Part shown: positions 2,957 to 21,694 of the stretch, piece after piece | How positions within the stretch are numbered: the first letter of the stretch is position 1 | How the letters are laid out: each line of letters starts with the position of its first letter | From: Chthoniobacteraceae bacterium | GTDB taxonomy: Bacteria; Verrucomicrobiota; Verrucomicrobiia; Chthoniobacterales; Chthoniobacteraceae | Assembly: GCA_044221185.1 (NCBI GenBank) | Contig: JBGAPP010000016.1 | Span: 46,652-78,651 of the forward strand | Reading direction: 5' to 3' | DNA: 32,000 nucleotides | Notes under the pieces: model-generated | Seen by the model: only the letters and a program-made list of their open reading frames with translations | Databases searched by the model: none | Told to the model about the DNA's origin: nothing | Position numbers and translations under genes: made by a program

Positions 2957-5900
2957 AAACCCCGCCCGCTTCACTCAGCATCCTGTCCGCGACCCTGCTC
3001 GTCGGGGCATCCGCATCCGCGCAGACCGTTCCAGCGCAGCGTCCGCGCACGCGCCCGGCATCCGCGCTCACGGGCCTCGCGGAGTGGGAGAAAGGCGAGG
3101 AGTTGCTGAAGCGCATCAAGGTCCCGCCCGCGCCGGTGCTGTCGGCTGAGGAGGAGATGAAGACTTTCAAAATGGCGCCGGGCTACCGCGTCGAACTCGT
3201 CGCCGCCGAGCCGCTCATGCACAACCCGATCTTCTTCGAGATCGATCCCGACGGCCGGCTGTGGGTCGTCGAGTATCAGGGCTACATGCGCGACCTCGCG
3301 GGAACGGGCGAGGGCGATCCGATCTGCCGCGTAGTCGTGCTCGAGGACACCGACGGTGACGGACGCATGGACCGGAGCGCCGTCTTCCTCGACAAGCTCG
3401 TGATGCCGCGCTCGTTCGCCTTTGTGAAAGGCGGCCTGCTGTTGCAGGAGCCGCCGAAGCTGTGGTTCTGCGAGGACTTCGACGGCGACCTTCACTGCGA
3501 CCGGAAAACCGAGGTCGGCAACCTCGGTCTCGCCGGAAATCCGCAGCACACCGCGAACGGCCTGCGCTACGGCATCGACAACTGGCTGCACAACGCCGAC
3601 TGGCCGCGCAAGCACCGCTGGCGCGACGGCAAGCTCATCGGCGAAAACACGGCCCACCGAGGGCAGTTCGGCGTCACCTTCGATGAGACCGGCCGCTTTT
3701 TCTCCTGCTATGAAAACCGCGCGCTCACTGCGGACCTGATCCCTGCGGATTATCTGATGCGGAATGCGAACTTGAAGAAGGTGTTCGAGCGCGGCGGTGG
3801 CGACCGCAGCGCGTTCGGCGTGAATGTGGATGCCGGCGCGCGTGCGCAGGAGGTCTTTCCGATTCGCGTCACGCCCGCTGTCACGCTTGGCGCGTTGGAA
3901 CTGCGCGACGACGGACGGCTGCGCACCTACACGATCGCGAGCGGCGTCTGCTGCTACGACGGCCACCAGTTCCCCGACGATGCGCGCGGAAATTTCATCG
4001 TGCCCGAATCCGGCGGCCACCTGCTCGGCCGGCTTGTGCTGCCGCCCGGCATCGCGCCGCTGGCCACGCGCTTTTATCCGCCGGAGCAGGAGCTGCTCGC
4101 TTCGACGGACGAGCGCTTCCGCCCCGTGAATGCGCGTGTCGGCCCCGACGGCGCGCTATACGTCGCCGACCTGTGTCACGGCATCATCGAGCATGTGATC
4201 TTCATGGTGCCGTGGCTCGCGAAGCAAATTCAGGAGCGCCATCTCGACGACGGAAATGATCGCGGCCGCATCTGGCGTGTCGTCGCGGAAGGCCGCCCGA
4301 TCGACCGCAGGCCGCCGCGCCTCTCGACGGCATCGAGTGCGGAACTCGTGAAGACGCTCGCGCACCCCAACGGCTGGCACCGCATCACCGCGCAGCGCCT
4401 GCTCGTCGAGCGCGGCGACGCGGGCGCCGTGCCCGCGCTTCGAGAGGCGGCGAGGAATGCCGTGCCCCTCGGCAGGCTCCACGCGCTGTGGGCGCTCGAC
4501 GGAATGGATGCGCTGGATGCCGATGCGCGGCTCGCCGCGCTGAAGGATCCGGACGAGCGCGTGCGGTCCGCTGCGGTCCGCCTCGCCGAGCGCGATCCGA
4601 GCCCGGCCACTCTTGCCGCCCTTGCGCCGCTCGTCGCAGATGCGAGCGAACCGGTGCGGCTGCAACTTGCTCTCACGCTCGGCGCCTTTCGCGAACCGCA
4701 GGCCGTCGCGCTGCTGGAAACACTGCTTACACAGAACACGCATCCGCTTTTCCGCACTGCCGCGGCGACAGGGCTCGGGGGGCGCGAACTGGAGTTTCTC
4801 GCCGGCTGGCTGCAGAACCACGGTGAGAGTGAGGTGACGCCCGCGCTCGTGGCGCTGCTGGCGAAATGCGTGCTCGAGGAATCCGAGCCGGCGCGCATCG
4901 CGTCGTTGATCGACCTGCTTTCGAAAACCCCCGCAGCGCATCCCGCAGCGCGCGACGCGCTTCTCGCGGTCTTTGCCGAAACCCGGCCGCCGAAGCCGTT
5001 TGCGCTCGCAGGCGAACCCCGCGTGCTGACCTCGCTGCTTCGCGATCCGAAATCGGCCCCGCTCGCGCAGCGCGCGCTCAGCGTCGTCACGTGGCCGGGT
5101 GCCGATGCGGCGAAGACACTCACGCCCGGCGCGCCGCCGCTCACCGCCGAGCAGCAGCGCCTCGTGGATGCGGGGCGCGAAGTCTATTCGACGATTTGCG
5201 CTGCATGCCATCAGCCGCACGGTGGCGGCGGTGCGGGAGTGGCGCCTCCGCTCGCGGGCAGCGACTGGGTGAGCGGCCCGCCGAAGCGGCTGGCGCGTGT
5301 TGTCCTCCACGGCCTCTACGGGCCCATCGAGGTGAACGGCCAACGCTGGAATCTCCACATGCCCGGCCTCGGCGCGTCCGGGATTTTGAGCGACGAGAAA
5401 ATCGCGGGTGTGCTCAGCTACGTGCGCCGCGCGTGGGGCAACACCTCCGCGCCTGTCGAGCCATCCATCATCACGAGCGTGCGCAAGGAAACCGCGGCCC
5501 GCACATTCCCGTGGCGCGCGGAGGAGCTTGGTTTTCAAAATGCCGCGCAAGCCGACGCCGGAGCGATCAAGCCCGCGGCGAACGGTGAACTCCTCCTGCC
5601 CGCGCGCCTTGCCACGACCTACGGCCAGCGGCTTGCCTACCGTCCGTCGCTCGACATTCTCGGCCCATGGCGCGTGAAGGACGACGTTGCGGGCTGGAGC
5701 GTCGAAGTTTCCGGCGACGGCAGCTACGAGGTGTTCGTGACGCTCGCCGCCGATTCTGCGTCCGCGAGCAATCGCTTCCGCATCGAGACCGAGGTCGACA
5801 GCACGACGGCGGCGGTGCAGTCGAGCGGGGCATTCGACCGTTTCCATGAGTTCTCCGCCGGCCGCGTCCCGCTGCGTGCGGGTGTGAACCGCATCCTCAT

Positions 5901-5970
5901 GCGCGTCGACGGCCCGCTGCGCAATGAACTCGCCGACGTGCGCGCGCTGCGGCTCGTGCCGGTGAAGTGA
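2953..5970 (+). CDS. PVC-type heme-binding CxxCH protein (membrane-bound dehydrogenase-like beta-propeller + HEAT repeats + cytochrome c domain + C-terminal beta-sandwich)
   Basis: Start MKTPPASLSILSATLLVGASASAQ (signal peptide); its ATG overlaps the CCP stop (ATGA at 2953-2956). FKMAPGYRVELVAAEPLMHNPI is typical of the Planctomycetes/Verrucomicrobia dehydrogenase-domain family. HEAT-like repeats are present (HPNGWHRITAQRLLVERGD..., DPDERVRSAAVRLA). CxxCH (CAACH) lies at 5197-5211. The first ~124 aa of track ORF 2581..5970 overlap CCP and are not coding. Confidence 0.8.
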   Translation: MKTPPASLSILSATLLVGASASAQTVPAQRPRTRPASALTGLAEWEKGEELLKRIKVPPAPVLSAEEEMKTFKMAPGYRVELVAAEPLMHNPIFFEIDPDGRLWVVEYQGYMRDLAGTGEGDPICRVVVLEDTDGDGRMDRSAVFLDKLVMPRSFAFVKGGLLLQEPPKLWFCEDFDGDLHCDRKTEVGNLGLAGNPQHTANGLRYGIDNWLHNADWPRKHRWRDGKLIGENTAHRGQFGVTFDETGRFFSCYENRALTADLIPADYLMRNANLKKVFERGGGDRSAFGVNVDAGARAQEVFPIRVTPAVTLGALELRDDGRLRTYTIASGVCCYDGHQFPDDARGNFIVPESGGHLLGRLVLPPGIAPLATRFYPPEQELLASTDERFRPVNARVGPDGALYVADLCHGIIEHVIFMVPWLAKQIQERHLDDGNDRGRIWRVVAEGRPIDRRPPRLSTASSAELVKTLAHPNGWHRITAQRLLVERGDAGAVPALREAARNAVPLGRLHALWALDGMDALDADARLAALKDPDERVRSAAVRLAERDPSPATLAALAPLVADASEPVRLQLALTLGAFREPQAVALLETLLTQNTHPLFRTAAATGLGGRELEFLAGWLQNHGESEVTPALVALLAKCVLEESEPARIASLIDLLSKTPAAHPAARDALLAVFAETRPPKPFALAGEPRVLTSLLRDPKSAPLAQRALSVVTWPGADAAKTLTPGAPPLTAEQQRLVDAGREVYSTICAACHQPHGGGGAGVAPPLAGSDWVSGPPKRLARVVLHGLYGPIEVNGQRWNLHMPGLGASGILSDEKIAGVLSYVRRAWGNTSAPVEPSIITSVRKETAARTFPWRAEELGFQNAAQADAGAIKPAANGELLLPARLATTYGQRLAYRPSLDILGPWRVKDDVAGWSVEVSGDGSYEVFVTLAADSASASNRFRIETEVDSTTAAVQSSGAFDRFHEFSAGRVPLRAGVNRILMRVDGPLRNELADVRALRLVPVK

Positions 5971-5982
5971 GGATGCCGCTGG

Positions 5983-7293
5983 TCAGAGGGCGACTGTCCG
6001 TCCGGCGATGGGGATTTCGTAGAGTCCGTGTTCGTCCGGACGCACGGGCGGCGCGGCATCCATGCCCGTGATGTCGGGCGCGAGCCGGAGGTTGGAATTC
6101 AGCGCGGCATCCCACTCGACGATCTTTCCCGAGTAGGCGGCCATGCGGCCCATGATCGCGGTCATCGTGCTCTTCGCGCCATACTCGGCCTCATTGTAGG
6201 GCAGGTCGTGGCGGATGGCATGGAAGAAGTCGTCGTGCTCCTGCTGGTAGGGGTTCTCCACGCGGTCCGAGCGCATCTCCCACGGGTTCTTTCCTGTGAT
6301 GGAGTAAATCTCCCGGCCGTCGAAAAAGTCCGCGCGGCCCGTGCTGCCGACGGCGTGGTTTGCGACGCTTGCCCAGCAGCCTGGACGGCGATCACATTCA
6401 CCGAAGAGCCGTCCGCCGCCCGCGTATTCCCACTCGACGGCGAAGTGGTCGAAGAGGTTGCCGTAGTCCGGGCTGCGCTCGCTCAGCGCGCCCATGCCGT
6501 GCGCGCGCACCGGGTAGCCGCCGTGGAGCCAGTTCGAGATGTCGATGCCGTGGACGAGGTTGTCCACGATGAAGTCCGCCGAGAGCCACGAGAAGTAATA
6601 CCAGTTGCGGAGCTGGTATTCGAGCTCGCCCACCTCCGGCTTGCGTTTGAGGCCGGTGCGCAGCGGCGTGTTTGCAAAGGAGCGCGTGTAGATGAGGTCG
6701 CCGATCTGCCCCGCGTGGATGCGCTTCACCATTTCCTGGAAGCCCTTCTTGTGCCGCCGCTGGAAGCCGACCGCGACCTTCAGGTTCTTCTTCTTCGCCT
6801 CCTCCGCCGCGGCGAGCACGCGCCGGACGCCCGGCGCATCCACGGCGACCGGTTTCTCGATGAACACGTGTTTGCCCATCCGCACCGCCTCCTCGAAATG
6901 CGCCGGCCGAAATGCGCACGGCGTCGCGAGGATCACGACATCCGCGGCTGCGATGGCCTGCTTGTAGGCGTCGAAGCCGGTGAACTGCCGCTCCTGCGGC
7001 ACATCCACGCGGTGCTCCTGCTGCGCGCGCAGCGCGTTGAATCCGACGGCGAGCTTGTCGGGGAAGAGATCCGCCATCGCGACGAGCTTCGTGTTGCTGT
7101 CGGCGTTGAGCGCCTGGTTCGCCGCGCCCGCGCCGCGGCCACCGCAGCCGACGAGCGCGAGCTTCAGGAGTTCATTTCCGCCCTGTCCGCGGCTGATCAT
7201 CGGGAATCCAACAGAGGCAGTCGCCGCGAGCGCGGTGGCGGACTTTGCGAGGAACGTGCGGCGGGGGAGCGGATGGTTGGAGGCGGGTTTCAT
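5983..7293 (-). CDS. Gfo/Idh/MocA family oxidoreductase with twin-arginine (Tat) signal
   Basis: Start MKPASNHPLPRRTFLAKSATALAATASVG (RRTFL Tat motif; ATG is the complement of 7291-7293). Rossmann motif LALVGCGGRGAGAA, followed by EKPVAVD, typical of Gfo/Idh/MocA. Confidence 0.85.
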   Translation of the reverse strand: MKPASNHPLPRRTFLAKSATALAATASVGFPMISRGQGGNELLKLALVGCGGRGAGAANQALNADSNTKLVAMADLFPDKLAVGFNALRAQQEHRVDVPQERQFTGFDAYKQAIAAADVVILATPCAFRPAHFEEAVRMGKHVFIEKPVAVDAPGVRRVLAAAEEAKKKNLKVAVGFQRRHKKGFQEMVKRIHAGQIGDLIYTRSFANTPLRTGLKRKPEVGELEYQLRNWYYFSWLSADFIVDNLVHGIDISNWLHGGYPVRAHGMGALSERSPDYGNLFDHFAVEWEYAGGGRLFGECDRRPGCWASVANHAVGSTGRADFFDGREIYSITGKNPWEMRSDRVENPYQQEHDDFFHAIRHDLPYNEAEYGAKSTMTAIMGRMAAYSGKIVEWDAALNSNLRLAPDITGMDAAPPVRPDEHGLYEIPIAGRTVAL

Positions 7294-7451
7294 GCGAGGA
7301 CGATGCGGTGCGGAAATTGTGTAACCCCGCCGGAGGGCGGGCGCTGTGATATTTTGTCGGTGAATGTGACCGAGGGAGCCCGCAGCTTCCGTCTTGCCGC
7401 TGCGATTCCGCCGCACCTACGCTGCGGCAAAGCGCCACCTTCCCCAGAGCC

Positions 7452-8234
7452 ATGAACACCCCGAAGCCAGCCGCGATCCTCAAAGACAAGCTCCTCAAGG
7501 GCCACGCCGTTTACGGCACGCTCATCCAGCACGCGGTCGTGCCGGCGATCGTGGATTTCATTCCGGAAAACTCGGTGGACTTCGTGATCGTGAGCGCGGA
7601 GCACAACGCCCTCGACATCGCCGACTTCATGCCGCTGCGCTACGCGCTCGCCGCAAAGGGAATCGCGTGCCTCGCGCGGACGCACAGCCGCGACGCCGAC
7701 GACGTGGCGAAGGTCTGCGACTCATTCGACGGCGTCGTCATCCCGTATGCCGAGGATGTGGAGATGATCAGGCGGCTCGCTGCCGCCGCCGTTTTCCGCC
7801 CGCTCAAGGGCGTCGCGCTCGAGCGTGTGATCCAGGAAGGCAAGTGGCCCAGCGAGAAGACGCGCCATTACGTGGCCGAGCAGAAATGCGCCGACACGAT
7901 GTTCATCCCGATGATCGAGTCGGTCCGTGCGGTCGAGAACCTCGAAGCCATCTGCGCGATTCCCGGTGTCAGCGCGCTCTTCATCGGACCCAACGACATG
8001 ACGACGAACATGGGCATCCCGAACGAATACGACAGTCCGGAGCTCATCGCGGTCATCCAGCGCATCATCGACACGGCCGACAAGCGCCACATCCCCGCGG
8101 GCTGCTGGTTCGGGAAGCCTGAGCAGGCTCTGCGCACGATCCGGCAAGGCGCGCGCTTCGTGGTGTATTCAAACGACAGCAGCATGCTGAAGGATGCGAT
8201 GATTGCGGCGTTCACGCAGCTCAGGAGGGGGTAG
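7452..8234 (+). CDS. HpcH/HpaI-family aldolase (2-keto-3-deoxy-acid aldolase-like)
   Basis: 260-aa ORF with DFVIVSAEHNALD, FIPMIESVRAVENLEAI and LFIGPNDMTTNMG motifs, characteristic of HpcH/HpaI aldolase/citrate-lyase-beta-like TIM barrels. Confidence 0.8.
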   Translation: MNTPKPAAILKDKLLKGHAVYGTLIQHAVVPAIVDFIPENSVDFVIVSAEHNALDIADFMPLRYALAAKGIACLARTHSRDADDVAKVCDSFDGVVIPYAEDVEMIRRLAAAAVFRPLKGVALERVIQEGKWPSEKTRHYVAEQKCADTMFIPMIESVRAVENLEAICAIPGVSALFIGPNDMTTNMGIPNEYDSPELIAVIQRIIDTADKRHIPAGCWFGKPEQALRTIRQGARFVVYSNDSSMLKDAMIAAFTQLRRG

Positions 8235-8378
8235 CGCGGTCTGCGATCGTCCAGCGTCCGGCCGAGACTTGGAATTCGGACGCGGCCCGGGCGGTGGCCA
8301 TTTTTTAACCGGCTTGCCAAGCCCGCGCGGCTTCATGCAGATGCACGCCTGCCACCCCATGCTCTCGCCCGCGTCCGC

Positions 8379-8383
8379 GGAGG
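8379..8383 (+). promoter_or_regulatory. Shine-Dalgarno-like GGAGG ahead of the RyR-operon first gene
   Basis: GGAGG sits 9 nt upstream of the ATG at 8393. Confidence 0.45.
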
Positions 8384-8392
8384 TTCATCACC

Positions 8393-11300
8393 ATGCCATC
8401 GAAGCCCCTTCACTTTTCCGGAAAAATCGTCGTGCGGAAACAGGACGGCCGACGGCTTGTCATCCAGCGTTCGCGCAAGTCCCGCGGGAATCCGGGCCAG
8501 TGGGAGTTTCCCGGAGGCAAGGCGGATGAGGGCGAGCACGTGGATGCGGCCCTGCTTCGCGAGGTCGGGGAGGAGACCGGGATCGCGATCCACCTTGGAA
8601 AAATCGTCGGCCACGCGCACTCCGAACTGACGGACAAGACGATCGCCTATCTCTTCTTCGACGCACAGTTCGTCTCCGGGGAGGTGAGGCTGAGCGACGA
8701 GCACGAGGACTCGCGCTGGGTGTCCCTGCCGGAGCTGCTGGAGATGAACGCGCGGAAGGAAATCGCGGAGCAGTTCCGGCCGTTCGTCGAGGCCTACTGC
8801 CGCGCGCGGGGCTATGGACAGATGAAGAGGGAGGATTCCCCCGCGCCCCGCAGTGCGGCGCGCATTGATGAGTTCGTGGCCCGGTATCAGGCGGAGCACC
8901 CCGTGTATGAATCCTTCGCCGCAACCCTGGAAAAAAACCTGAGGGACGCGATGAGGCAGATCTGCCCGGAGGCGATCGTGCAGTGCCGGCCGAAGAGCGT
9001 GGCGAGCTTTGCGGAGAAGATCCTGCGGAAAAACAAATACAACGACCCGCTCGCGGATATCACCGACTTGTGCGGGGCGCGCATCATCACGCAGATCAAA
9101 CCCGAGGTGGACGCCGTGTGCGAGTTCATCAGGACGAGCTTCGCCATCGATGAGGCCAACAGCGTGGATACCCTGACCCGCCTGCGCGCGAGCGAGTTCG
9201 GCTACCGGTCGGTGCACTTCGTCGTGCGGTTCGATGCCGAAGGCTTCCGGCAGGCACCGCACCGGCTTTTGCGCCCGAAGGCCGGAACGAAGGGCGAGAT
9301 GAGGGCCGAGATTCAGGTGCGCACCATTCTCCAGCACGCGTGGGCGGCGATCGGCCACGACCGTCTCTACAAAAGCGGTTTCGCGGTGCCGGACGTTCAC
9401 CAGCGCGAGGCCGGGCGCGTGGCGGCCGTGCTTGAGAGCGCGGATGACGCATTCGGGCGCATCGTGGACGGAATGGAAAACTACCGGACCAATTCCGGCG
9501 CGATGCCGAAGACCGACGGGGAGTTTGAAAGCGAGCAGGCGATTTGCAGGACGATCCTCAGCCATCAGGCAGGGGACTCTGCCGCCTCGGAGTCGTCCGT
9601 TCACAGGCTCGCACGCCTCTCGATGCTGCGGAACCAATGGGCCGACGCGGTGCGCGTTCTCCGGGAATTCCCCGGCACGGGCAAATCGAGCAGCCTCGAG
9701 TGCTGCCTCGGGATTTCCCTCTGCGAACTCCACCGCGACGAGCCGTCGCACCCGGCATTTGCGGAAGGCCGCGAGGCGCTGCGGAGAGCCATCCAGCTCG
9801 ATGGGGGCAACATCGAGGCGCTCCTGCAGTTTGCCGAAACCGCGTCCGACGAGACTGAGAAGCTCGGGCATTTCCAGGCCGCGTTCGTCGCGAATCCCGG
9901 CGATCCCGAGGTGCTGAGCGCCTATGTCCGCCACAAGCTCGGGGTCGAGAAGAGCGACTCGTTCATTCCCCTGCTGCGGCCCGCGCTGGAGCAGGCGATT
10001 GCGACGTGCAGGCTTCATGTGCAGGCCGGCGTCAATCTTCCGGAGGCGCTGCTTCGCATCGCGGGTTTTCACCTGCTGCTGGGTCCCGTCCGCGACGCGG
10101 CCGGGCGCGAGGACTGCGCGCCCGCCCTGACGGCGTGCGCCCAGGCCGCCGCGCTCGCCAAGGCGCCGCTGCTGCTGAAAACCGCAAGCGAGGCAGTCGA
10201 GAAGCTCCGCTCGATGCAGCCCGGTCGCTGCGATTTGAAGGCAGTCTCCCGGTTTCTGCTGGCGGCCTGGCGGGCGAGATTCCCGAAAGACGCGCCGTTG
10301 GAACGCCTGACCCGCATCGCCACGCACGACGAAGCCGGCCAGATGTGCAGGATCGAAGGTCCGGTGGTCATCATCGCGGGCGGATGCGATCCGGCCCATG
10401 CCGGGCGGGTTGCGGGCTACCGGGCCCTGCTGCACGAGTGCCTTGCGGATTTCAAAGGCACGATCGTCTCCGGCGGAACCCGCGAGGGCATCAGCGGGCT
10501 GGTGGCCGAACTCGGCGAGAGGCACCCCGGGCGGCTCCGCACGGTCGGCTACCTCCCCGCCATGCTTCCGAGTGATGGAACCGCGACCCGCGATGGCCGC
10601 TACCACGACCTTCGGCGCACCGACGGGGACGCGGGATTCTCCGTGCTCGAACCGATCCAGAACTGGATCGATCTCCTGGCATCGGGAATCGCGCCGGAGG
10701 ATGTGCGCGTGATCGGAATCAACGGCGGGGCCATCGCGGCCCTCGAATACCGCATGGCGTGGGCGCTCGGCGCGCGCGTGGGCATCGTGCGCGGCAGCGG
10801 CCGCGAGGCCGATCGGATCGAACACGAAATCAACGGGCAGGAATACCCCGGCATGCTGCTGCTCCCGGAGGACGCGATGACGCTGCGCGCATTCATCCAC
10901 ACAGGCGACCGCCGCGGGTCGCCGTTCACCGCGGAGCAGGCGGAGCGCCTCGCGCGCCTGGCCCACGCGCGCTACCTCGACCAGAACCGCCACAGGCTGG
11001 GCGACCGCACGATGCGCGATTGGGATTTCCTCGGCGAGGATCTGAAGAGGTCGAACCTCGACCAAATCACCTACATGACGCAGATCCTGCGCGCCGTCGG
11101 CTGCGGCGTGGCGACGGCGGGTTCCGGTGCGGCACCTGGCAAATTCAGCAGTGAGGAATCCGAAACCATGGGGCGGATGGAGCACGGGCGGTGGAATGTC
11201 GAGCGCTTGAGCCAGGGGTGGCGCTGGGGTGAGAAACGTGAGCCCGAGAAGCGTCTCAGTCCGTTTCTGGTCTCGTGGAATGATCTCGACGATGGGGTGA

Positions 11301-11428
11301 AGGGCTGGGATCGCAGCGTTGTGGACACTTTCCAAGATCTGCTGGCCGAAATAGGAATGCAGATCGTCCGCGAGCCGGCGACGGCGGCGCGCCCAGACAC
11401 CGAGAATTCCGAAAGAACCCATCCATGA
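8393..11428 (+). CDS. Multidomain Nudix hydrolase + RelA/SpoT-family nucleotide pyrophosphokinase + helical/TPR-like + SLOG (LOG/TRPM-type Rossmannoid) + RyR-domain protein
   Basis: Perfect Nudix box at aa 42-64 (GKADEGEHVDAALLREVGEETGI, nt 8516-8584). All five RelA/SpoT synthetase motifs fall within aa 199-327 (nt 8987-9373): RPKSVASFAEK, DLCGARII, GYRSVH, EIQVRT, HDRLYK. A helical region spans aa ~380-650. A SLOG-like region spans aa ~655-835: PVVIIAGGCD, IVSGGTREGISG, GINGGAIAALEY, VRGSGREADRI. The RyR-type tail spans aa ~845-990, including MEHGRWNVERLSQGWRWGEKREPEKRLSPFLVSWNDLDDGVKGWDRSVV. Confidence 0.85.
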   Translation: MPSKPLHFSGKIVVRKQDGRRLVIQRSRKSRGNPGQWEFPGGKADEGEHVDAALLREVGEETGIAIHLGKIVGHAHSELTDKTIAYLFFDAQFVSGEVRLSDEHEDSRWVSLPELLEMNARKEIAEQFRPFVEAYCRARGYGQMKREDSPAPRSAARIDEFVARYQAEHPVYESFAATLEKNLRDAMRQICPEAIVQCRPKSVASFAEKILRKNKYNDPLADITDLCGARIITQIKPEVDAVCEFIRTSFAIDEANSVDTLTRLRASEFGYRSVHFVVRFDAEGFRQAPHRLLRPKAGTKGEMRAEIQVRTILQHAWAAIGHDRLYKSGFAVPDVHQREAGRVAAVLESADDAFGRIVDGMENYRTNSGAMPKTDGEFESEQAICRTILSHQAGDSAASESSVHRLARLSMLRNQWADAVRVLREFPGTGKSSSLECCLGISLCELHRDEPSHPAFAEGREALRRAIQLDGGNIEALLQFAETASDETEKLGHFQAAFVANPGDPEVLSAYVRHKLGVEKSDSFIPLLRPALEQAIATCRLHVQAGVNLPEALLRIAGFHLLLGPVRDAAGREDCAPALTACAQAAALAKAPLLLKTASEAVEKLRSMQPGRCDLKAVSRFLLAAWRARFPKDAPLERLTRIATHDEAGQMCRIEGPVVIIAGGCDPAHAGRVAGYRALLHECLADFKGTIVSGGTREGISGLVAELGERHPGRLRTVGYLPAMLPSDGTATRDGRYHDLRRTDGDAGFSVLEPIQNWIDLLASGIAPEDVRVIGINGGAIAALEYRMAWALGARVGIVRGSGREADRIEHEINGQEYPGMLLLPEDAMTLRAFIHTGDRRGSPFTAEQAERLARLAHARYLDQNRHRLGDRTMRDWDFLGEDLKRSNLDQITYMTQILRAVGCGVATAGSGAAPGKFSSEESETMGRMEHGRWNVERLSQGWRWGEKREPEKRLSPFLVSWNDLDDGVKGWDRSVVDTFQDLLAEIGMQIVREPATAARPDTENSERTHP

Positions 11429-11712
11429 GCTACCAGCCGGCACCGATTGACACCTCCGCGATTTCCCTTCCAGCAGATCTTCACGCCTTGACGGAGTATC
11501 TCGCGGAAAACGCGCACGACCTGTGGGCCGCGCAGCGGATTTCCGAGGGCTGGACATTCGGTGCCGAGCGCGACGACGCGGCGAAGAAGCACCCATGCCT
11601 CGTTTCCTACGCTGACCTGCCCGATTCGGAGAAAGTCTATGACCGCCAGACCGCGATGGGCACGCTGAAGGCCATCCTCGCGATGGGCTATCGCATCGAG
11701 CGGGGTTCCTGA
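11425..11712 (+). CDS. Stand-alone RyR (ryanodine-receptor Ryr) domain protein
   Basis: 95 aa: LTEYLAENAHDLWAAQRISEGWTFGAERDDAAKKHPCLVSYADLPDSEKVYDRQTAMGTLKAILAMGYRI closely follows the RyR repeat consensus as I remember it. The ATG overlaps the upstream stop (ATGA, 11425-11428). Confidence 0.85.
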   Translation: MSYQPAPIDTSAISLPADLHALTEYLAENAHDLWAAQRISEGWTFGAERDDAAKKHPCLVSYADLPDSEKVYDRQTAMGTLKAILAMGYRIERGS

Positions 11713-11730
11713 GAGAAAGGATGAGCTGAC

Positions 11731-13722
11731 ATGAGCGCGGGCACACAGGACCACATGCACATGCCGCTCCGGCGGTGGTGCATCATTCTCGGCTTGGGAA
11801 TTGCAACAGTGGTGTGCGGGACCGTCGGGCTGGTCCTCTACGGACGCGCGCACGGGCACCATGCCGAGGGTGCGATGGAGATTCCGCAGGCATTTTACCA
11901 CTCGCTGCAGATGCTCCTGCTGCACACTCCGCACCTCGAGCACGGGCCGAACTGGGGCATTCTCGCCGGCGAGTTTTTCGGCGCGGCGACCGCGCTCCTC
12001 ACCGTGGTGTTCCTGCTGCACCACAGGGCGCGCCGCGAACTGCAGCGGTTCTGGCTCCGGTTTGCGGAGGAGCACATCGTGGTCTGCGGAATCGGCGACC
12101 GCGGCCTCGAAATCGTCCGCAGGTTCGGCCCCGCGCTGGATCTCCCCCTGCACGCTCGCTGGCTCGGGGCTCTGAAGCGGCTCGGTCGGCGGCTTACCGC
12201 CGTCGTGCAGCGGGTGGTGCGCGTGGCGTTGTGGCGCGAGGGCGCGCAGGACCGCAACGCGGCCCGCGATTTTGCGAATGCCTGCGCAGGCCGCGGTGGC
12301 TGCGGTGGCTGCGGCAATCGCCAACTCGACGCCCGTGAGATCGTCGTCATCGATCCCGCGCCGGATGAATCCGTGCGCGAGAAGCTCGAGCAGGCCGGCG
12401 TGTGCGTGCTGAAGGGCGACGCCACCGAGAAGGAAATCCTCCTCCGCGCCCGCATCGCCCGGGCGTCGCAAATCTTCGTCATCACCGGCTCGGATCAGAC
12501 GAACCTCGCAATCGCCGCCGCAGCGTTTCATGCATCCAAGGATGGCAGGCCGCCCGAGTGCCGCGTTCACCTCTCGAACGCAAACCTCCGCCAGGCTTTC
12601 GACGCGTCCCTCGACGGCACCGAGGATCATCCGGCGGCCCGTCCGCACTTCTTCGATGTGTTCGACCGGGCCGCGCGACGCGTCTTCCGAGACCATCCGC
12701 TCGACGGCGCGGGCATCCGGAGGACCGACACCACGCAGGTGCATCTCGTCGTCATCGGCTTTGGAAAAATGGGGCGCAGCCTCGCGCTGAACGCGGCGCG
12801 CCTCGGGCATTTCGCAAACGGAAAGCCGCTCCGCATTTCCATCGTGGACCGCCACGGCGCTGCGAAGGAGGAGACCTTCCGCTTCCGGCACCCCGCGTTC
12901 GGCGAGCAGGAGTTCTGCGTCCTCGATTTTCACCAGCTCGACGCCGCCTCCGCAGCGTGCGCACGGCAAATGCAGGCGTGGGCGGACGAGCCGGACACGA
13001 GGCTGCACATCTGCCTCTGCCTGGATGACGACATGCAGAGCCTCGAACTCGCGCTGCGCTTCCAGAAAACCCTCGGGAGGACCGACTCCCTCCTCGTCCG
13101 AATCCGCGCGCGCCCGTCCATCAGGGACATCATCAAAGTGGCCGCGAAGGAGCCGCAGATCGCCGTCTTCTCCACCGCCGATGAAACCGGCGACGACGAG
13201 GATCTCGACACCATCGCCCGCGCGATTCACAGCGCCTTTGTGAAGTCCATGGTGCCCGACCCCGCGGAGTATGCGGCGAAGGTCGCGAAGAATTATGCGC
13301 TCCGTCCGTGGAACGAGCTCCGCGACGACTTCCGGGACTCGAACCGCCAGCAGGCGGACCACCTTTTCATCAAGCTGCGCGCCCTCGGATACGACCTCGC
13401 GGATCGAGACAAAATCCCCGAGGGCGCGACCCCTGCCGACGATGTGAAAGCCGCGGACTTCACGCCGCTCGCGCCTCTCGAGCACACGCGCTGGAACGCC
13501 GAGCGCTGGCTCGCCGGCTGGCGCCTCCCGCCGCCCGGCCCCCGCGACGAAGACACGGACAAGAAAAACCGCGTTTCGCCTTACCTCGTCAAATGGGAGG
13601 ACGTTCCGCGGGAAATCCAGCGTTACGACGTGCAGGCAGTGGAAAACATCCCCGTGCTCATCCGCGATTTTCTTCCCGGCAAGGTCATCATCCACAGGGC
13701 TGGCACAAAGCACGGCGCCTGA
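11731..13722 (+). CDS. Membrane protein: 2 TM helices + two TrkA-N/RCK-like Rossmann domains + C-terminal RyR module (ion-channel-like candidate effector)
   Basis: TM1 is WCIILGLGIATVVCGTVGLVLY (nt ~11776-11841) and TM2 is WGILAGEFFGAATALLTVVFLLH (nt ~11953-12021). The first GxGxxG is IVVCGIGDRG (12088-12105), followed by VVIDPAPDE...VLKGDATEKEILLRARIARASQIFVITGSDQTNL, typical of TrkA_N. The second GxGxxG is LVVIGFGKMGRS. The tail has PWNELRDDFRDSNRQQADHLFIKLRALGY plus LEHTRWNAERWLAGWR...KKNRVSPYLVKWEDVPREIQRYDVQAV (RyR-like). Alternative starts exist at M9/M11. Confidence 0.8.
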   Translation: MSAGTQDHMHMPLRRWCIILGLGIATVVCGTVGLVLYGRAHGHHAEGAMEIPQAFYHSLQMLLLHTPHLEHGPNWGILAGEFFGAATALLTVVFLLHHRARRELQRFWLRFAEEHIVVCGIGDRGLEIVRRFGPALDLPLHARWLGALKRLGRRLTAVVQRVVRVALWREGAQDRNAARDFANACAGRGGCGGCGNRQLDAREIVVIDPAPDESVREKLEQAGVCVLKGDATEKEILLRARIARASQIFVITGSDQTNLAIAAAAFHASKDGRPPECRVHLSNANLRQAFDASLDGTEDHPAARPHFFDVFDRAARRVFRDHPLDGAGIRRTDTTQVHLVVIGFGKMGRSLALNAARLGHFANGKPLRISIVDRHGAAKEETFRFRHPAFGEQEFCVLDFHQLDAASAACARQMQAWADEPDTRLHICLCLDDDMQSLELALRFQKTLGRTDSLLVRIRARPSIRDIIKVAAKEPQIAVFSTADETGDDEDLDTIARAIHSAFVKSMVPDPAEYAAKVAKNYALRPWNELRDDFRDSNRQQADHLFIKLRALGYDLADRDKIPEGATPADDVKAADFTPLAPLEHTRWNAERWLAGWRLPPPGPRDEDTDKKNRVSPYLVKWEDVPREIQRYDVQAVENIPVLIRDFLPGKVIIHRAGTKHGA

Positions 13723-13781
13723 ATTCCAGCACGTGGACGACCGCTCCTGCATACTCCGACCACCTGTTGACGCCGTGAAGA

Positions 13782-13811
13782 TGGAGCGGGTAGCGGGAAT
13801 CGAACCCGCAT
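13782..13811. repeat. attL: 30-bp direct repeat identical to the 3' end of tRNA-Gly
   Basis: TGGAGCGGGTAGCGGGAATCGAACCCGCAT at 13782-13811 is identical to 29048-29077. The flanking bases differ on both sides (a/g before, t/g after). Confidence 0.9.
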
Positions 13812-13850
13812 TTCGATTCACCCTTGGGAATCGAACCATTTTTCCCTAGA

Positions 13851-13907
13851 GTGAGAACACGCTGGAAAGGTCTGGACGGGCTTGGGTGTTCTCACTAATG
13901 TTCTCAC
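13851..13907. repeat. Three copies of GTTCTCAC (one inverted), candidate integrase arm-type sites, left end
   Basis: GTGAGAAC at 13851-13858 (inverted), GTTCTCAC at 13888-13895 and 13900-13907. The same 8-mer occurs twice near the right end. Confidence 0.35.
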
Positions 13908-13911
13908 CATT

Positions 13912-15057
13912 ATGCCGAGCCTACACAAACGCTCTCGTTCCCCATTTTGGGTTGCCGCCTACTGCGCTGCGGATGGCAGACGCCTCAAAAAATCCACGCG
14001 CACCACAGAACGTGCCCTTGCCATGAAACTTGCGCTCGAATGGGAGCAAGCGGCCAAGGCGGGGCGTGCGGGGCGTCTTGTCGAAAGCCAGTGCCGACGC
14101 GTGCTTTCCGAAATCCACGAACACGCGAACGGCGAGCCGTTGCATTTTCATTCGGCGGGCGCGTGGTTGGATGAATGGCTTGCGGGGAAGAAAGGCGTCA
14201 CCACTGAACGGACGCTTCTGAAATACACGCAATATGTCGCCGAGTTTCGCGAGAGCTTGGGCGAGAGCGCCAGCAAGCCGTTGGCTTCGATTTCACCGCG
14301 CCACGTCCGCGCATTCCGGGATTCGCTCGCGCGCGCCGGACATTCCCCGGTCACGGTCAACGGCGCACTCAAGATATTGTCCTCGCCCTTCAATGCCGCG
14401 CAGCGTTTGGGATATATCGCCGTGAACCCATGCGCGGGCGTCGAACTTCTGCGCGACGATGCCGACGCAGAGAAAGACGTTTTCGCGCCGGAACAGGTTC
14501 GTTCGCTTGTGGCGGCGGCGGAGGGCGATTGGAAGGGCGTGATCCTTGCGGGCTACTTCACCGGCCTGCGCCTGCGCGACGTGACGGAACTGCGTTGGGA
14601 CGCATTGGATTTCAAAACCGGCTTGCTTCGTGTCAAGACGCGCAAGACGGGCGCGGTTGTTGTGCTCCCGCTTCACAAGGAGTTTGCCGCATGGCTGCAA
14701 GAGCAAACGCGGGGCATCGGCAAAGCCCCGATCTTCCCCGCGCTTGCTGGCAAGACAGGTGGGGGCAAGAGCGGCCTTTCCATGAAGTTTCGCGGCATCA
14801 TGGAGCGGGCGGGCATCGTGGGGCGCGTGCTTCGCCAGCGTGCCGAGAACAGCGCGGGTCGCACGCAAAGCAGCCTCTCGTTTCACTCCCTCCGCCATTC
14901 GTTCAACTCCGCACTCGCCAACGCGGGCGTGGCACAGGAACTCCGCCAGAGACTCACAGGACACGCGAGCGCGGCCATGAATGCGAAATACACACATCAC
15001 GAACTCGACGCCCTCCGTGCGGCTGTCGCTCTTGTGCCAAGTGTCGCGGCACAATGA
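13912..15057 (+). CDS. Tyrosine site-specific recombinase (phage-type integrase)
   Basis: MPSLHKRSRSPFWVAAYCAADGRRLKKST is an N-terminal arm-binding-like segment. Catalytic-type motifs are present: GLRLRDVTELRW (Arg), HSLRHSF (HxxR) and GHASAAMNAKYTH (Tyr). The ATG at 13912 is preferred over the TTG at 13882 used by the track. Confidence 0.9.
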   Translation: MPSLHKRSRSPFWVAAYCAADGRRLKKSTRTTERALAMKLALEWEQAAKAGRAGRLVESQCRRVLSEIHEHANGEPLHFHSAGAWLDEWLAGKKGVTTERTLLKYTQYVAEFRESLGESASKPLASISPRHVRAFRDSLARAGHSPVTVNGALKILSSPFNAAQRLGYIAVNPCAGVELLRDDADAEKDVFAPEQVRSLVAAAEGDWKGVILAGYFTGLRLRDVTELRWDALDFKTGLLRVKTRKTGAVVVLPLHKEFAAWLQEQTRGIGKAPIFPALAGKTGGGKSGLSMKFRGIMERAGIVGRVLRQRAENSAGRTQSSLSFHSLRHSFNSALANAGVAQELRQRLTGHASAAMNAKYTHHELDALRAAVALVPSVAAQ

Positions 15058-15512
15058 GCGCCAAGAAAATCGCAATTAAGCCGGAAGAGTGGGATTTTTC
15101 GGGCTGTCCAAAAAACGAACGGATGGAATGCTGTCTTTACGAGTATGCTCGTTCTTCCGAGGCATTCCGTGCTCAGTATGACGAATTGAAGGGGAGTAAT
15201 CCCGCAGAGGGAACGGCTGCACTACTTGGCTCCACAGGCTTTGGCCTGAGCTTGAATTGCCCGGAGTTTCCCGCAACTCCGTGGCTGAGGATTGATACTC
15301 AATTTCGGCGAAAGCGCGTTATGCGTCTATTTACGTTCAGAGACCAGAGTTTCGCCGTTGCGAATCCAGTATTTGGCCAAAGATTCAACACGGAAACAGG
15401 GGAGGAAACGGTGCTTGTCGAGATTTGTTGGGGGTGTCCAAAGCCTCAAATCGTCGAGGATTTTGAAAAATGGGTTAAGGCGAATCACAAAGCGAAACAG
15501 GGCGACAACTGA
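15054..15512 (+). CDS. Hypothetical protein (152 aa), translationally coupled to the integrase
   Basis: The ATG overlaps the integrase stop (ATGA, 15054-15057). This is the only plausible part of track ORF 14430..15512. I recognise no domain. Confidence 0.5.
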   Translation: MSAKKIAIKPEEWDFSGCPKNERMECCLYEYARSSEAFRAQYDELKGSNPAEGTAALLGSTGFGLSLNCPEFPATPWLRIDTQFRRKRVMRLFTFRDQSFAVANPVFGQRFNTETGEETVLVEICWGCPKPQIVEDFEKWVKANHKAKQGDN

Positions 15513-15548
15513 CTTGACGCACCAATCGCAATCTGTGGGAGTGCGCGG

Positions 15549-16385
15549 ATGCACCGTTTGAACTTCCGGGATGTCCTTGAGATTCAGCCGTGGGAGCATC
15601 TCACCAAGATTGTTTTTGCCTCGGCGCGCTGCGCTGATGTCGCGCGCGCTTATAGGTCGAACATTGAGCGTTCGCACCGTCTCGCGCTGATTCCCGGCCA
15701 TGCCTTCATGGATGGCGAGAATTGGAAAGCGGCGTGTGATCGCGCGATGAAGGAGCTGGGCACAAGTGATCCACTCGACGCGCGAGTGCCCGAGCCGGCG
15801 GTCAGGCTATACAAGGAACGTGAGGCGACTTTCAGCACGCAACAGAAGTGCGACCACTTCCGGGAGGCAACAGACAACGCGGACTTGATGTGGTCGGAGT
15901 TTGATACGATGCCGCGAGCGTTGCACGACCTGTTACAGACGATGGTGATCAACGCATTGACGGCGTTTGAAGTGCTAGTTGAGGGCTTGTGGTATGCAGC
16001 AGTCGCGGAGCGGCCCAGTTTGGAATCTGCAATGACAAACGAGGAGCGCGGCAAGATTGGCTTTCGCAGTCGGAGGCGTTTTCGGAAATCTTACGAACTC
16101 ATATTCACGTCCGATGTCGGAAGCATTCATTCGCTTCTGCTGGATCAATCCATTGATGCGGCGGCGCTGGTGAGAAACGTCTTGGTTCACGTCGCCGGAA
16201 AAACGGATGATGATTTTAGGACAGGGGCAAAGGGCATTCCGATTCTCGCGCAATGGGAGGCTGCGCCGGAAGGAACGGAAATCGAATTTACCGGCAGCTT
16301 TACTCGCGGGCTGATCGACCCGTTGACACCGCTCGGCTATTCGCTAGTCAAGGAAGTGGACGACTGGCTAAAACGAAATCCATGA
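15549..16385 (+). CDS. Hypothetical protein with candidate HEPN-type RNxxxH motif
   Basis: 278-aa ORF, apparently mostly helical. R209-N-V-L-V-H214 (nt 16173-16190, context AALVRNVLVHVAG) fits the HEPN Rx4-6H / R-N-x-x-x-H signature. The motif was seen directly; the fold assignment is inference. Confidence 0.5.
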   Translation: MHRLNFRDVLEIQPWEHLTKIVFASARCADVARAYRSNIERSHRLALIPGHAFMDGENWKAACDRAMKELGTSDPLDARVPEPAVRLYKEREATFSTQQKCDHFREATDNADLMWSEFDTMPRALHDLLQTMVINALTAFEVLVEGLWYAAVAERPSLESAMTNEERGKIGFRSRRRFRKSYELIFTSDVGSIHSLLLDQSIDAAALVRNVLVHVAGKTDDDFRTGAKGIPILAQWEAAPEGTEIEFTGSFTRGLIDPLTPLGYSLVKEVDDWLKRNP

Positions 16386-16609
16386 GTGCAGACATTCATG
16401 CTTTAGAGCTGGAGCAGAACTGCCCCGATTGTCAGGGCCGTCGCGGAGAGTATTTGCGAGGAGAGGAGGAAGGCTGGCAGGCGTGTTCGCGGTGCAATGG
16501 CTCCGGGTTTGTTCCCACCGAGCTTGGAACGCGCGTGCTCAACCTCATCCGCCACAACTCGCGCCTGACTGTCAGCGCCGAGCTGCGCGTCGCTGGCGCT
16601 GCCGTTTAG
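16382..16609 (+). CDS. Small DnaJ-type zinc-finger protein (two CxxCxGxG motifs)
   Basis: MSADIHALELEQNCPDCQGRRGEYLRGEEEGWQACSRCNGSGFVP contains CPDCQGRRG and CSRCNGSG. The ATG overlaps the upstream stop (ATGA, 16382-16385). Confidence 0.5.
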   Translation: MSADIHALELEQNCPDCQGRRGEYLRGEEEGWQACSRCNGSGFVPTELGTRVLNLIRHNSRLTVSAELRVAGAAV

Positions 16610-16718
16610 CGACTTCCATCCGGCGATCCACTTCGGCCTTTGGAACGCTGGCGATCTGGCGCATGAGCTTGTCGAACTTCTGAAACGGGGACGGCTCCGG
16701 CTGTGCTGGTTCGCTCAT
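16572..16718 (-). CDS. Possible small basic-tailed protein (48 aa)
   Basis: My own reverse translation gives MSEPAQPEPSPFQKFDKLMRQIASVPKAEVDRRMEVAKRQRQRRAARR. It is below the track length cut-off and overlaps the 3' end of the zinc-finger ORF convergently. It resembles small FxxFDxxMRxxxxVxKxE ORFs I have seen in mobile DNA (memory only). Confidence 0.3.
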   Translation of the reverse strand: MSEPAQPEPSPFQKFDKLMRQIASVPKAEVDRRMEVAKRQRQRRAARR

Positions 16719-16787
16719 GGTGGAAGCGTATCAAACGCACGCAGCGGGTGCAAGAGCGGCGCATTGACGGCGGTGCGGGCCGGGCGT

Positions 16788-16985
16788 ATGCGGAGAGCCG
16801 TGAAGATTCACGAACTCAAGCCCGAGATGGACAGGATCGAGGCGGAGATTCTGGCGCTGCCGCCCGAGGAAATAAAAAGGCTTGTGGAGGAGAGCCGCAA
16901 AAATGGGGAGGAAATGCGAGCGGCGATGTCGCCAGAGCAGCGGCGCGAGGAGTTGGAGATCGCCCTCGCGTCGGGAAGCCACTAG
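16788..16985 (+). CDS. Possible small charged coiled-coil protein
   Basis: Inner Met of track ORF 16764..16985: MRRAVKIHELKPEMDRIEAEILALPPEEIKRLVEESRKNGEEMRAAMSPEQRREELEIALASGSH. No recognisable domain. Confidence 0.3.
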   Translation: MRRAVKIHELKPEMDRIEAEILALPPEEIKRLVEESRKNGEEMRAAMSPEQRREELEIALASGSH

Positions 16986-17084
16986 CGTTTGCGCCTGCGC
17001 TTCTGTCGCTCTCGGGCTGCAAATCGCAGCGCATTCGCCAGCCGCGCCACGCAGCGCGTGTTGTATCGCTGGCCGCGCTCCTGC

Positions 17085-18734: not shown

Positions 18735-18770
18735 TAACCCGTCTCAGCGGACTTTTTTGTTCGAGCCGCT

Positions 18771-21688: not shown

Positions 21689-21694
21689 GCGTCT

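Follow-up and report, generated by a model that had tools for sequence, protein, structure and literature searches.

A Chthoniobacteraceae operon of three genes joins RelA/SpoT, SLOG, RyR and channel-like modules and most likely represents an undescribed relative of the Thoeris-type systems of anti-phage signalling

A stretch of 32,000 nucleotides from a Chthoniobacteraceae bacterium (GCA_044221185.1, contig JBGAPP010000016.1, positions 46,652 to 78,651), here called the window, carries three adjoining open reading frames (ORF1–ORF3) that combine a Nudix domain, a RelA/SpoT pyrophosphokinase, a SLOG domain, a putative channel and several copies of the RyR domain. An earlier note, made from the letters of the DNA, had proposed the operon as a candidate nucleotide-signalling conflict system, and nearly all the domains that it claimed for the three proteins were recovered by profile hidden Markov model searches and by structure prediction with Foldseek comparisons. 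The genes and their domains are as follows, in window coordinates and, within each protein, in amino acids (aa):

8379–8383, + strand: Shine-Dalgarno-like GGAGG, 9 nt 5′ of the ORF1 ATG (direct reading)
8393–11428, + strand: ORF1, 1011 aa; Nudix, RelA/SpoT synthetase, TPR-like helices, SLOG, tandem RyR tail
8426–8767, + strand: ORF1 Nudix domain, aa 12–125 (Pfam NUDIX, 8e-20, 71.6 bits; MutT/NudG/RppH-like)
8870–9487, + strand: ORF1 RelA/SpoT synthetase-only domain of the small alarmone synthetase (SAS) type, aa ~160–365 (Pfam RelA_SpoT, aa 199–328, 1.6e-17, 64 bits)
9500–10327, + strand: ORF1 all-helical TPR-like region, aa ~370–645 (AlphaFold2, AF2, secondary structure; TPR Pfam matches in homologues; SPINDLY TPR folds)
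10355–10912, + strand: ORF1 SLOG domain of LSDAT_prok type, aa ~655–840
10928–11377, + strand: ORF1 tandem RyR (Repeat12-like) tail, aa ~846–995 (Pfam RyR, aa 924–991, 32.1 bits, cut-off 27.4)
11425–11712, + strand: ORF2, 95 aa; one RyR repeat, its start overlapping the ORF1 stop
11731–13722, + strand: ORF3, 663 aa; pore-like module of two transmembrane (TM) helices, tandem RCK/Rossmann domains, tandem RyR tail
11767–12057, + strand: ORF3 TM1, short re-entrant-like helix and TM2, aa 13–109 (hydropathy; AF2 helices 13–40, 51–62 and 75–109)
12070–13173, + strand: two ORF3 Rossmann/RCK domains, with the invariant GxGxxG glycines G120/G122/G125 and G343/G345/G348 (TrkA_N, folds)
13192–13695, + strand: ORF3 tandem RyR (Repeat12-like) tail, aa 488–655 (structure match and alignments)

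The junctions make the three genes one unit in the window: the stop of ORF1 and the start of ORF2 share the ATGA at 11425–11428 and 18 nt separate ORF2 from ORF3, all of which, with the gene limits and the spacing of the GGAGG, had been read exactly in the earlier note. The resulting cassette measures 5.35 kb in the window. ORF1 has >317 homologues and all three genes are matched by many sequences from several phyla (E-values down to 0); on this comparison of sequences ORF1–ORF3 are judged to be real genes under selection. Two long ORFs antisense to the operon (8333–11746, − strand, 1137 aa; 11071–13839, − strand, 922 aa) were rejected as artefacts of high GC content, and they appear to cluster because they are mirror images of conserved genes. 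Upstream of ORF1, an Rfam scan found no riboswitch or leader RNA and a sigma-70 scan no promoter. By hydropathy, two hydrophobic segments are present in ORF3 and none in ORF1 or ORF2.

The Nudix box of ORF1 (aa 42–64, G-x5-E-x7-REVGEETGI) is by direct reading a perfect match to GX5EX7REUXEEXGU, and the domain resembles the Methanosarcina MutT structure 3grn both in sequence (1e-22) and in fold (TM-score 0.88, 38% identity), with RppH- and NudG-type enzymes also matching. Nudix enzymes of the MutT/NudG type hydrolyse (p)ppGpp. All five synthetase motifs are present (RPKSVASFAEK, TDLCGAR, GYRSVH, EIQVRT and HDRLYK) and their key residues (R199/K201/K209, D225/G228/R230, Y271/S273/H275, E306/Q308/T311 and H322/Y326/K327) are invariant or nearly so across an alignment of 49 homologues, such that the intact Nudix box and synthetase reported in the earlier note hold by direct reading, Pfam and alignment alike. 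The closest structures to the synthetase are RelQ/SAS1 and RelP (2be3, 3l9d, 5ded; TM-score 0.74), of which 5ded is Bacillus subtilis SAS1/RelQ with pppGpp, and a sequence search from ORF1 reached neither CapRel (7ztb) nor other structures of toxic SAS (toxSAS) enzymes. An HD or small alarmone hydrolase (SAH) gene is not present, and the fused Nudix domain takes that place.

The order of domains along ORF1 given in the earlier note (Nudix, RelA/SpoT, helices, SLOG, RyR) was reproduced by Pfam and by the AF2 model (pLDDT 87.1, pTM 0.77), with the SLOG domain reaching significance only when isolated: the LSDAT_prok model scores 24 bits on the whole of ORF1, below threshold, and 30.1 bits on aa 648–845 (cut-off 25.4). 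LSDAT_prok is matched by 13/14 members of the ORF1 family, and the glycine loops GGTxxGxxG and GxNGG..E are conserved in the alignment of 49 homologues. Searched against PDB sequences, the profile of the SLOG region returned noise (eL30) with the weak exception of 1rcu, a LOG-like protein, and the single sequence returned artefactual matches to TAL-effector repeats. ORF1 is a soluble multidomain protein in which an intact SAS-type pyrophosphokinase is joined through a TPR-like scaffold to SLOG and tandem RyR domains.

RyR domains (PF02026) occur in all three proteins. ORF2 matches RyR over the full length of the model (Pfam, 123 bits, 6e-36), in line with the single repeat read in the earlier note, and shares 44% (repeat 1, E = 2e-21) and 40% identity with repeats of RyR2. 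The C-terminal ~150 residues of ORF1 and ORF3 consist of two repeats each and are 30% identical to one another (E = 3e-16). The ORF1 tail matches the R12 (Repeat12) of RyR1 and RyR3 in the PDB and aligns over both repeats. The RyR tail that the earlier note assigned to ORF3 stands by fold, aligning over ~200 columns with human RyR3 Repeat12 in complex with ADP or AMP-PCP (9ls7, 9l9b; TM-score ~0.52), but by sequence it scores 24.8 bits, under the Pfam cut-off of 27.4.

Two preprints of 2026 show for PF02026 proteins of phages that they bind 2′ and 3′ cyclic ADP-ribose (cADPR), the signals of Thoeris, or hydrolyse them (PMC13232231; 10.64898/2026.06.04.730250). RyDEP is a glycosidase with a catalytic dyad H75/D117, W78 stacked on the adenine and H100 in contact with the phosphates (PMC13232231), and RyR Tad is a sponge with key residues H129/W132, K147/H154 and K170/D171 (10.64898/2026.06.04.730250). 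The corresponding residues of ORF2 (H31/W34/R49/H56/D73, spacing 0/+3/+18/+25/+42) were aligned with a RyR Tad orthologue of phage CB4 and with the RyR2 repeats, and H31/W34/H56/D73 share the spacing 0/+3/+25/+42 with RyDEP H75/W78/H100/D117 and RyR Tad H129/W132/H154/D171. By this alignment ORF2 retains the residues that in phage RyR proteins bind or cleave glycocyclic ADP-ribose (ADPR). The RyR His, Trp and Asp positions are (near-)invariant among the 49 ORF1 homologues, and all three are retained in repeat 2 of both the ORF1 and the ORF3 tail, where Ser replaces the phosphate-binding His. That position is occupied by His, Arg or Asn in the tails of AAA ATPases with RyR domains, and the Ser is a derived state common to the ORF1 and ORF3 families. 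The RY12 region of RyR1 is an ADP/ATP site that has been proposed as an ATP:ADP ratio sensor, and prokaryotic RY12 homologues were said in passing to include ‘putative tetrameric cation channels’ (PMC13642953). The earlier note had treated the RyR domains as the element that holds the operon's products together; because of the PF02026 ligand data of 2026, which define pockets for adenine nucleotides and cADPR isomers, and the conservation of the ligand residues here, they are best read as probable ligand pockets rather than inert adaptors.

ORF3 has a significant Pfam match to TrkA_N (7e-13), and its AF2 model (pLDDT 81.9) consists of TM1, a short helix, TM2, two Rossmann domains and a helical tail, in agreement with the two TM helices and two GxGxxG domains described in the earlier note. 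The best folds (Foldseek) are full-length GsuK, with tandem RCK domains and entries bound to ADP or NAD (E = 2e-8), followed by TrkA, MthK and Slo1, at a sequence identity to GsuK-type folds of only ~12–14%. ORF3 is thus a two-TM protein of GsuK-like fold and a putative channel, in which the RCK domains and the RyR repeats of the tail both come in tandem. A conserved loop, LHTPH[LF]EHG (family consensus LHTPHxEHG, varying in distant members), lies at the site expected of a K+ filter, within the longer motif LQMLxLHTPH[LF]EHG at 11890–11950 (aa ~54–73); this loop, rich in His and Glu, may point to another permeant ion or to bound metal. An insertion of ~65 aa in the first Rossmann domain (RCK1; 12127–12330, aa ~133–200), with the Cys/Gly-rich stretch CAGRGGCGGCGN, is shared by ORF3 and its closest homologues and is lacking in most family members; it is modelled with low confidence. 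At E ≤ 1e-30 the ORF3 profile matches 5,097 representative clusters, and full-length matches below 1e-151 number at least 150.

Related loci were gathered from genomes (n = 5), metagenomes (n = 80) and contigs with chosen homologues (n = 9); neighbouring ORFs were classed by local profiles and key calls were checked with Pfam. Core loci were defined by the presence of a RelA-TPR-SLOG-RyR gene (n = 57), and 22 of them have at least 3 kb on both sides. A Nudix domain is fused or adjacent to the core gene in 39/57 core loci (17/22 well-flanked), and where the Nudix gene is separate it lies either upstream or downstream. The remaining genes of the operon are less constant, with an ORF3-like channel in 10/57 (6/22 well-flanked), an ~860–920-aa AAA-ATPase-RyR protein in 7/57 (4/22 well-flanked) and a short solo RyR protein in 4/57 (2/22 well-flanked). 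A TIR gene occurs in 21/57 core loci and a DUF4062-STAND gene in 12/57, with one or the other in 28/57 (17/22 well-flanked). Control loci, built around stand-alone SAS genes, have neither TIR (0/92) nor DUF4062 (0/92), and the difference is significant (28/57 vs 0/92, Fisher p ~1e-14), though most controls are viral contigs and the test set itself served to train the TIR profile. Among ten candidate TIR proteins submitted to Pfam, nine exceeded the TIR_2 cut-off. From these neighbourhood counts in the 57 loci, Nudix together with RelA-TPR-SLOG-RyR makes up the conserved unit, RyR-tailed proteins are exchanged for one another as its partners, and TIR and STAND genes are its usual neighbours. 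The earlier note had asked for synteny of all three genes across genomes; the trio does recur in Nitrospirota, Planctomycetota and Verrucomicrobiota, but it is not the conserved unit, given the low frequency of the channel.

The TIR neighbours take several forms (TIR alone, TIR-WD40, TIR-TPR, TIR-NB-ARC/NPHP3 STAND and TIR-DUF4384) and vary in position and orientation. Very large proteins with a DUF4062-STAND (NACHT/AAA_16)-WD40/TPR architecture are immediate neighbours in 12 core loci, including L010, L019, L023, L024, L030, L036, L040, L043 and L095. The candidate homology of DUF4062 to TIR gained no support, as hhalign on shallow local alignments gave a probability of 0.6%, and the DUF4062-STAND neighbours were counted apart from TIR because of that lack of support. 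The fullest arrangement is that of L006 (Nitrospirota, Thermodesulfovibrionia), where a solo RyR, a SLATT_1 two-TM effector, a channel, an Inositol_P/CysQ-like phosphatase, the core gene, a Nudix gene and a TIR gene are tightly packed on one strand. SLATT two-TM effector genes recur in three loci and the Inositol_P/CysQ-like phosphatase in two (L006 5581–6630 and 8480–9439; also L028, L095 and L009), and a CysQ-like phosphatase would fit removal of a 3′-phosphate after Nudix cleavage. At L021 (2830–4101) a 423-aa TrkA_N-Nudix fusion lies directly 5′ of the RelA-TPR-SLOG-RyR gene. An ORF2+ORF3 pair with the same 18-nt gap and 73% ORF2 identity is found at L089, where no ORF1-like gene occurs within 8 kb, and at L087 an ORF3-like gene overlaps a DUF4062-NACHT-WD40 gene. 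Pairs of Pup-ligase (Dop/PafA-like) genes with a small Pup-sized ORF adjoin ORF3-like genes at two unrelated loci, L088 (9325–16422) and L090 (2572–5885), the former also with an AAA (Mpa-like) and a JAB gene; the proximity may be coincidence or a functional link. A metagenome protein from ENA (P0135, 972 aa) begins with a RelA_SpoT-TPR N-terminal half and continues into the cytosolic RCK region of an ORF3-like protein; it lacks TM segments, its C-terminus is garbled, and it could be a Rosetta-stone fusion or an artefact of assembly or frameshift.

More than 500 ORF1-like stretches are present in the metagenome collection, and ORF1-like genes have a patchy taxonomic spread that includes archaea. 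A viral origin was considered and rejected: across 2.9 million viral contigs, the matches to ORF1 are confined to catalytic domains of stand-alone SAS, a single weak match resembles ORF3, and neither the ORF1 nor the ORF3 architecture is present. A search of the homologues with a profile of the RyR tail returned short solo RyR proteins only, within the limits of its word prefilter.

The nearest relative is a metagenome-assembled genome (MAG) of the same family (GCA_044221035.1, loci L002 and L090), with an ORF1 that is 76% identical and, upstream on the same strand, a TIR-NB-ARC-TPR gene whose TIR domain is of the TIR_2 type. Its operon is broken at the region of the RyR tail and ORF2, with one part on each of two contigs. 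Nucleotide homology to the window covers 8347–11257 (78%) and 11443–13696 (91%), ends within 46 nt of the ORF1 start and within 26 nt of the ORF3 stop, and gives way to unrelated sequence on both flanks. The operon behaves as a cassette despite its backbone-like GC content at third codon positions (GC3), and the different identities of the two modules suggest recombination module by module or a mixture of strains.

From these neighbourhoods and domains we infer, with moderate confidence, that the operon represents one cassette of a conflict system, widespread and so far uncharacterised, that responds to a nucleotide signal and is probably anti-phage and Thoeris-like. An undescribed relative of the Thoeris-type systems is the most likely assignment because the same genes elsewhere often adjoin TIR immune-signalling genes. 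An adenine-nucleotide or ADPR-derived signal would bind the SLOG and/or RyR modules, and its source would be the adjacent TIR or TIR-STAND protein in many relatives; here, it would be made in trans or would be an endogenous ligand derived from ADP, ATP or NAD. SLOG is known to bind 3′cADPR in ThsA (10.64898/2025.12.03.692087). Two outputs would follow: the RelA/SpoT domain would add a 3′-pyrophosphate either to a nucleotide, giving a product of (p)ppApp or (p)ppGpp type, or to the end of a tRNA, and the ORF3 channel would cause ion leak or depolarisation, with both together halting growth. In toxSAS systems, SAS-type enzymes are proven effectors of growth arrest and are lethal through their synthesis of (pp)pApp or their pyrophosphorylation of tRNA (PMC7229694, PMC11782079). 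The Nudix domain (and in some loci the CysQ-like phosphatase) would clear the 3′-pyrophosphorylated product or basal signal and so prevent self-intoxication, and ORF2 would buffer or degrade the signal and set a threshold or act as an off-switch, as a host counterpart of the phage RyR anti-Thoeris proteins. The tandem RyR tail is found on a pyrophosphokinase, a channel-like protein and an AAA ATPase, the pattern that, by analogy, would be expected of a sensor domain serving alternative effectors; the sensor reading is drawn because one receiver domain sits on differing effectors, as with CARF, SAVED and SLOG. The general idea of a nucleotide-signalling conflict system, already present in the earlier note, is strengthened by the TIR, SLATT and STAND neighbours of related loci, though two of its particulars fared less well. 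The synthetase that it cast as the signal generator is intact, but ORF1, with two receiver-type domains (SLOG and the RyR tandem), for that reason looks at least as much like a receiver or effector as like a primary generator, and TIR is the likelier generator in relatives. The resemblance that it drew to CBASS or type III CRISPR signalling gives way to Thoeris as the closer analogue because a neighbouring TIR is the likely generator in relatives. Scans of the three proteins and of the genes around them with Pfam, NCBIfam and PADLOC revealed neither a CD-NTase/SMODS nor a Cas10 cyclase.

Several results weigh against the Thoeris-like reading. The window contains no TIR gene (two-round local TIR profile; Pfam on scanned ORFs) and no recognisable signal generator besides the RelA/SpoT domain; the GC and GC3 of the operon are backbone-like and its upstream neighbours are metabolic; and the TIR enrichment carries the limits of its controls and profile given above. 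The acceptor substrate of the pyrophosphokinase is not deducible from sequence and the nearest structures are the housekeeping RelQ and RelP enzymes. ORF3 lacks a T[VI]GYG filter for K+ selectivity and has LLHTPHLEHGPN in the loop that leads from the short helix to TM2. PADLOC-DB v2 yields no named system, in keeping with the earlier note, which did not recognise one; ORF1 matches two single-gene candidates at the level of domains (PDC-S07 through Nudix, PDC-S33 through the RelA_SpoT part), ORF2 has no match and ORF3 has a marginal one to REase_II (E 0.02). No description of the architecture was found in the literature, where Burroughs et al. 2015 (Nucleic Acids Research, NAR) may have catalogued it earlier; Jimmy et al. 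2020 and two papers from the Aravind laboratory do not mention it.

The absence of a TIR gene suits the model of the earlier note, a self-contained second-messenger circuit in which the RelA/SpoT domain is the generator, the Nudix domain the eraser and a (p)ppNpp-type product gates ORF3 through its RCK and/or RyR domains, with the SLOG and RyR domains of ORF1 as feedback or stimulus input. Generator, hydrolase and receptor are all in the window, ORF1-like and ORF3-like genes adjoin in 10 loci from several phyla, GxGxxG is kept in both RCK domains of a protein whose best fold, GsuK, is nucleotide-regulated, and the ORF1 and ORF3 tails share the derived Ser at the phosphate-binding position. Even so, 47/57 ORF1-like loci are without an ORF3-like neighbour, the ORF2+ORF3 pair at L089 and the ORF3-like gene at L087 have no ORF1 nearby, the RyR tail also occurs on AAA ATPases, and the frequent TIR neighbours provide a more conventional upstream generator, which together leave such a circuit unlikely.

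Distinctly speculative, and a doubtful prospect, is a bolder reading as a two-tier immune cascade with a new messenger, which would also be a prokaryotic model of RyR/TRPM2 ligand gating. The SLOG and RyR domains of ORF1 would read a TIR-made ADPR-type signal or the ADP/NAD status, its RelA/SpoT domain would then 3′-pyrophosphorylate an adenine nucleotide or ADPR derivative, and the resulting second messenger would open ORF3 as a cation channel gated by RyR-Repeat12/RCK. ORF2 would reset the system as a glycosidase or sponge of the host, and ORF2-type proteins would have given rise to phage RyDEP, RyR Tad and the nucleotide site of animal RyR Repeat12.

A quite improbable alternative is a housekeeping role in stress or energy physiology, where an accessory alarmone synthetase/hydrolase pair would act with an RCK-regulated cation channel and have no part in conflict. 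In this scheme Nudix would stand in for the HD domain by which long Rel enzymes hydrolyse alarmones, and the ADP/ATP/NAD state would be sensed by the RyR, SLOG and RCK domains. Such a role would agree with the backbone-like GC3 and metabolic upstream neighbours, with the housekeeping SAS enzymes and TrkA/GsuK as closest structures, with the proposed ATP:ADP sensing by RyR1 RY12 (PMC13642953) and with the size of both families in free-living environmental bacteria, but it sits poorly with the patchy taxonomic spread including archaea, the differing cassette flanks in the nearest relative, the modular swapping of partners and the strong association with TIR, STAND and SLATT genes. The weakest candidate, a toxin-antitoxin-like addiction module without a diffusible signal, in which a toxSAS-type toxin is restrained in cis by the Nudix and C-terminal domains and ORF2 and ORF3 are unrelated passengers or a second independent module, can draw on the SAS-type synthetase-only domain with its neighbouring hydrolase (Nudix fused or adjacent in 39/57), on the 78% (ORF1) vs 91% (ORF2–ORF3) nucleotide identities that suggest separate histories and on the toxSAS precedents (PMC7229694, PMC11782079), but is made very improbable by 1011 aa with two conserved domains of ligand-receiver type and invariant binding residues, by the ATGA overlap and 18-nt gap (translational coupling) that tie ORF2 and ORF3 to ORF1 and by a recurrent synteny with other RyR-tailed proteins that argues for a shared ligand or complex.

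The surroundings of the operon in the window include an integrated island. The sole tRNA-Gly gene of the window, tRNA-Gly(UCC), lies at 29038–29111 on the − strand, and a 30-nt copy of its 3′ end is found at 13783–13812, 61 nt past the ORF3 stop, and is the far attachment (att) site of the island. The earlier note had the operon abutting a tRNA-Gly integration hot spot; the 30-nt copy does adjoin ORF3, but the tRNA gene itself is distant and the operon lies outside the island. Values of GC3 are 0.77–0.84 for the operon, 0.85–0.91 for the backbone and 0.67–0.73 for the island. The island (13783–29067) is flanked by the 30-nt direct repeat (13783–13812 and 29038–29067), has a GC content of 0.55–0.62 (backbone 0.65–0.70) and includes:

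13882–15057: tyrosine integrase
17085–18083, − strand: IS1595 transposase
18771–19673: Rep_trans-like gene (weak match)
22739–25891: MmeI-type restriction-modification enzyme
27969–28841: NERD nuclease

Several further ORFs of the island have no Pfam match. An origin of the operon as part of a tandem island was rejected, with no extra tRNA-Gly att copy upstream of ORF1 and no meaningful flanking repeats. Backbone genes at 307–8234 and 29198–31962 are metabolic or envelope-related and none is defence-related; they include Pfam matches to a DMFA2_C-like protein, a Gfo/Idh/MocA oxidoreductase and an HpcH/HpaI aldolase, together with LeuD-like, WaaA-like and nucleosidase-like proteins judged from translations only.

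The operon links alarmone-type enzymes, TIR signalling and ligand sensing by RyR domains, and attaches a RyR Repeat12 domain to a channel-like bacterial protein of simple build, within two large families (ORF1-like loci in the hundreds, ORF3-like clusters in the thousands) that are unnamed in current annotation. If the Thoeris-like reading is true, a RelA/SpoT pyrophosphokinase would join the signal-activated immune effectors, host RyR domains would join SLOG, SAVED, CARF and Macro as receivers of immune signals, and the phage RyR proteins that destroy or soak up Thoeris signals (2026) would gain a cellular context. Further, a small and tractable bacterial protein with RyR Repeat12 attached to a channel would open to direct test the long-debated connection of ryanodine-receptor gating with adenine nucleotides or cADPR.

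Among known systems, ORF2 can be compared with phage RyDEP and RyR Tad, with which it shares the PF02026 fold and the identity and spacing of the His/Trp/His/Asp residues, as a single repeat where the phage single-repeat proteins are dimeric; unlike them, ORF2 is host-encoded and operonic with effector-like proteins, and the tails of ORF1 and ORF3 are tandem with Ser for the phosphate-binding His. ORF3 resembles GsuK, MthK and TrkA in that a short helix separates its two TM helices and tandem RCK domains with GxGxxG come next, but has LHTPH[LF]EHG where a TVGYG-type filter would be expected and an extra C-terminal RyR Repeat12-like domain. The toxSAS enzymes (FaRel, FaRel2, CapRel and Tas1) share with ORF1 a synthetase-only RelA/SpoT domain with an intact site, paired with a hydrolase that degrades the product, and growth arrest would be a plausible output; here the hydrolase is Nudix and not SAH/HD, the closest matches in sequence and fold are RelQ and RelP, and the enzyme sits inside a 1011-aa sensor protein, whereas toxSAS are defined as small stand-alone SAS with a dedicated SAH or protein antitoxin, a definition that ORF1 does not fit. 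Animal RyR Repeat12 and TRPM2 (SLOG/MHR and NUDT9H) carry the same RyR R12, SLOG and Nudix modules on Ca2+ channels sensitive to ADPR or adenine nucleotides, and these modules co-occur here with a channel-like protein, although spread over three proteins, with a 2-TM RCK pore rather than a 6-TM one and a Nudix domain that is MutT-like rather than NUDT9-like. Thoeris differs in that its defining TIR gene, that of the signal generator ThsB, has no equivalent in the window, in that the effector here is a RelA/SpoT pyrophosphokinase and not SIR2, Macro-TM or similar, and in that the operon family adds RyR receivers, Nudix, an optional RCK channel or AAA partner and a SLOG of the LSDAT_prok type. 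With Thoeris, the operon nonetheless shares a SLOG domain as presumed receiver fused to an enzymatic effector (ThsA; ORF1), TIR genes that adjoin the ORF1 family in 21/57 loci and in the nearest relative, and a class of ADPR-derived ligands that fits both the SLOG and the RyR pockets.

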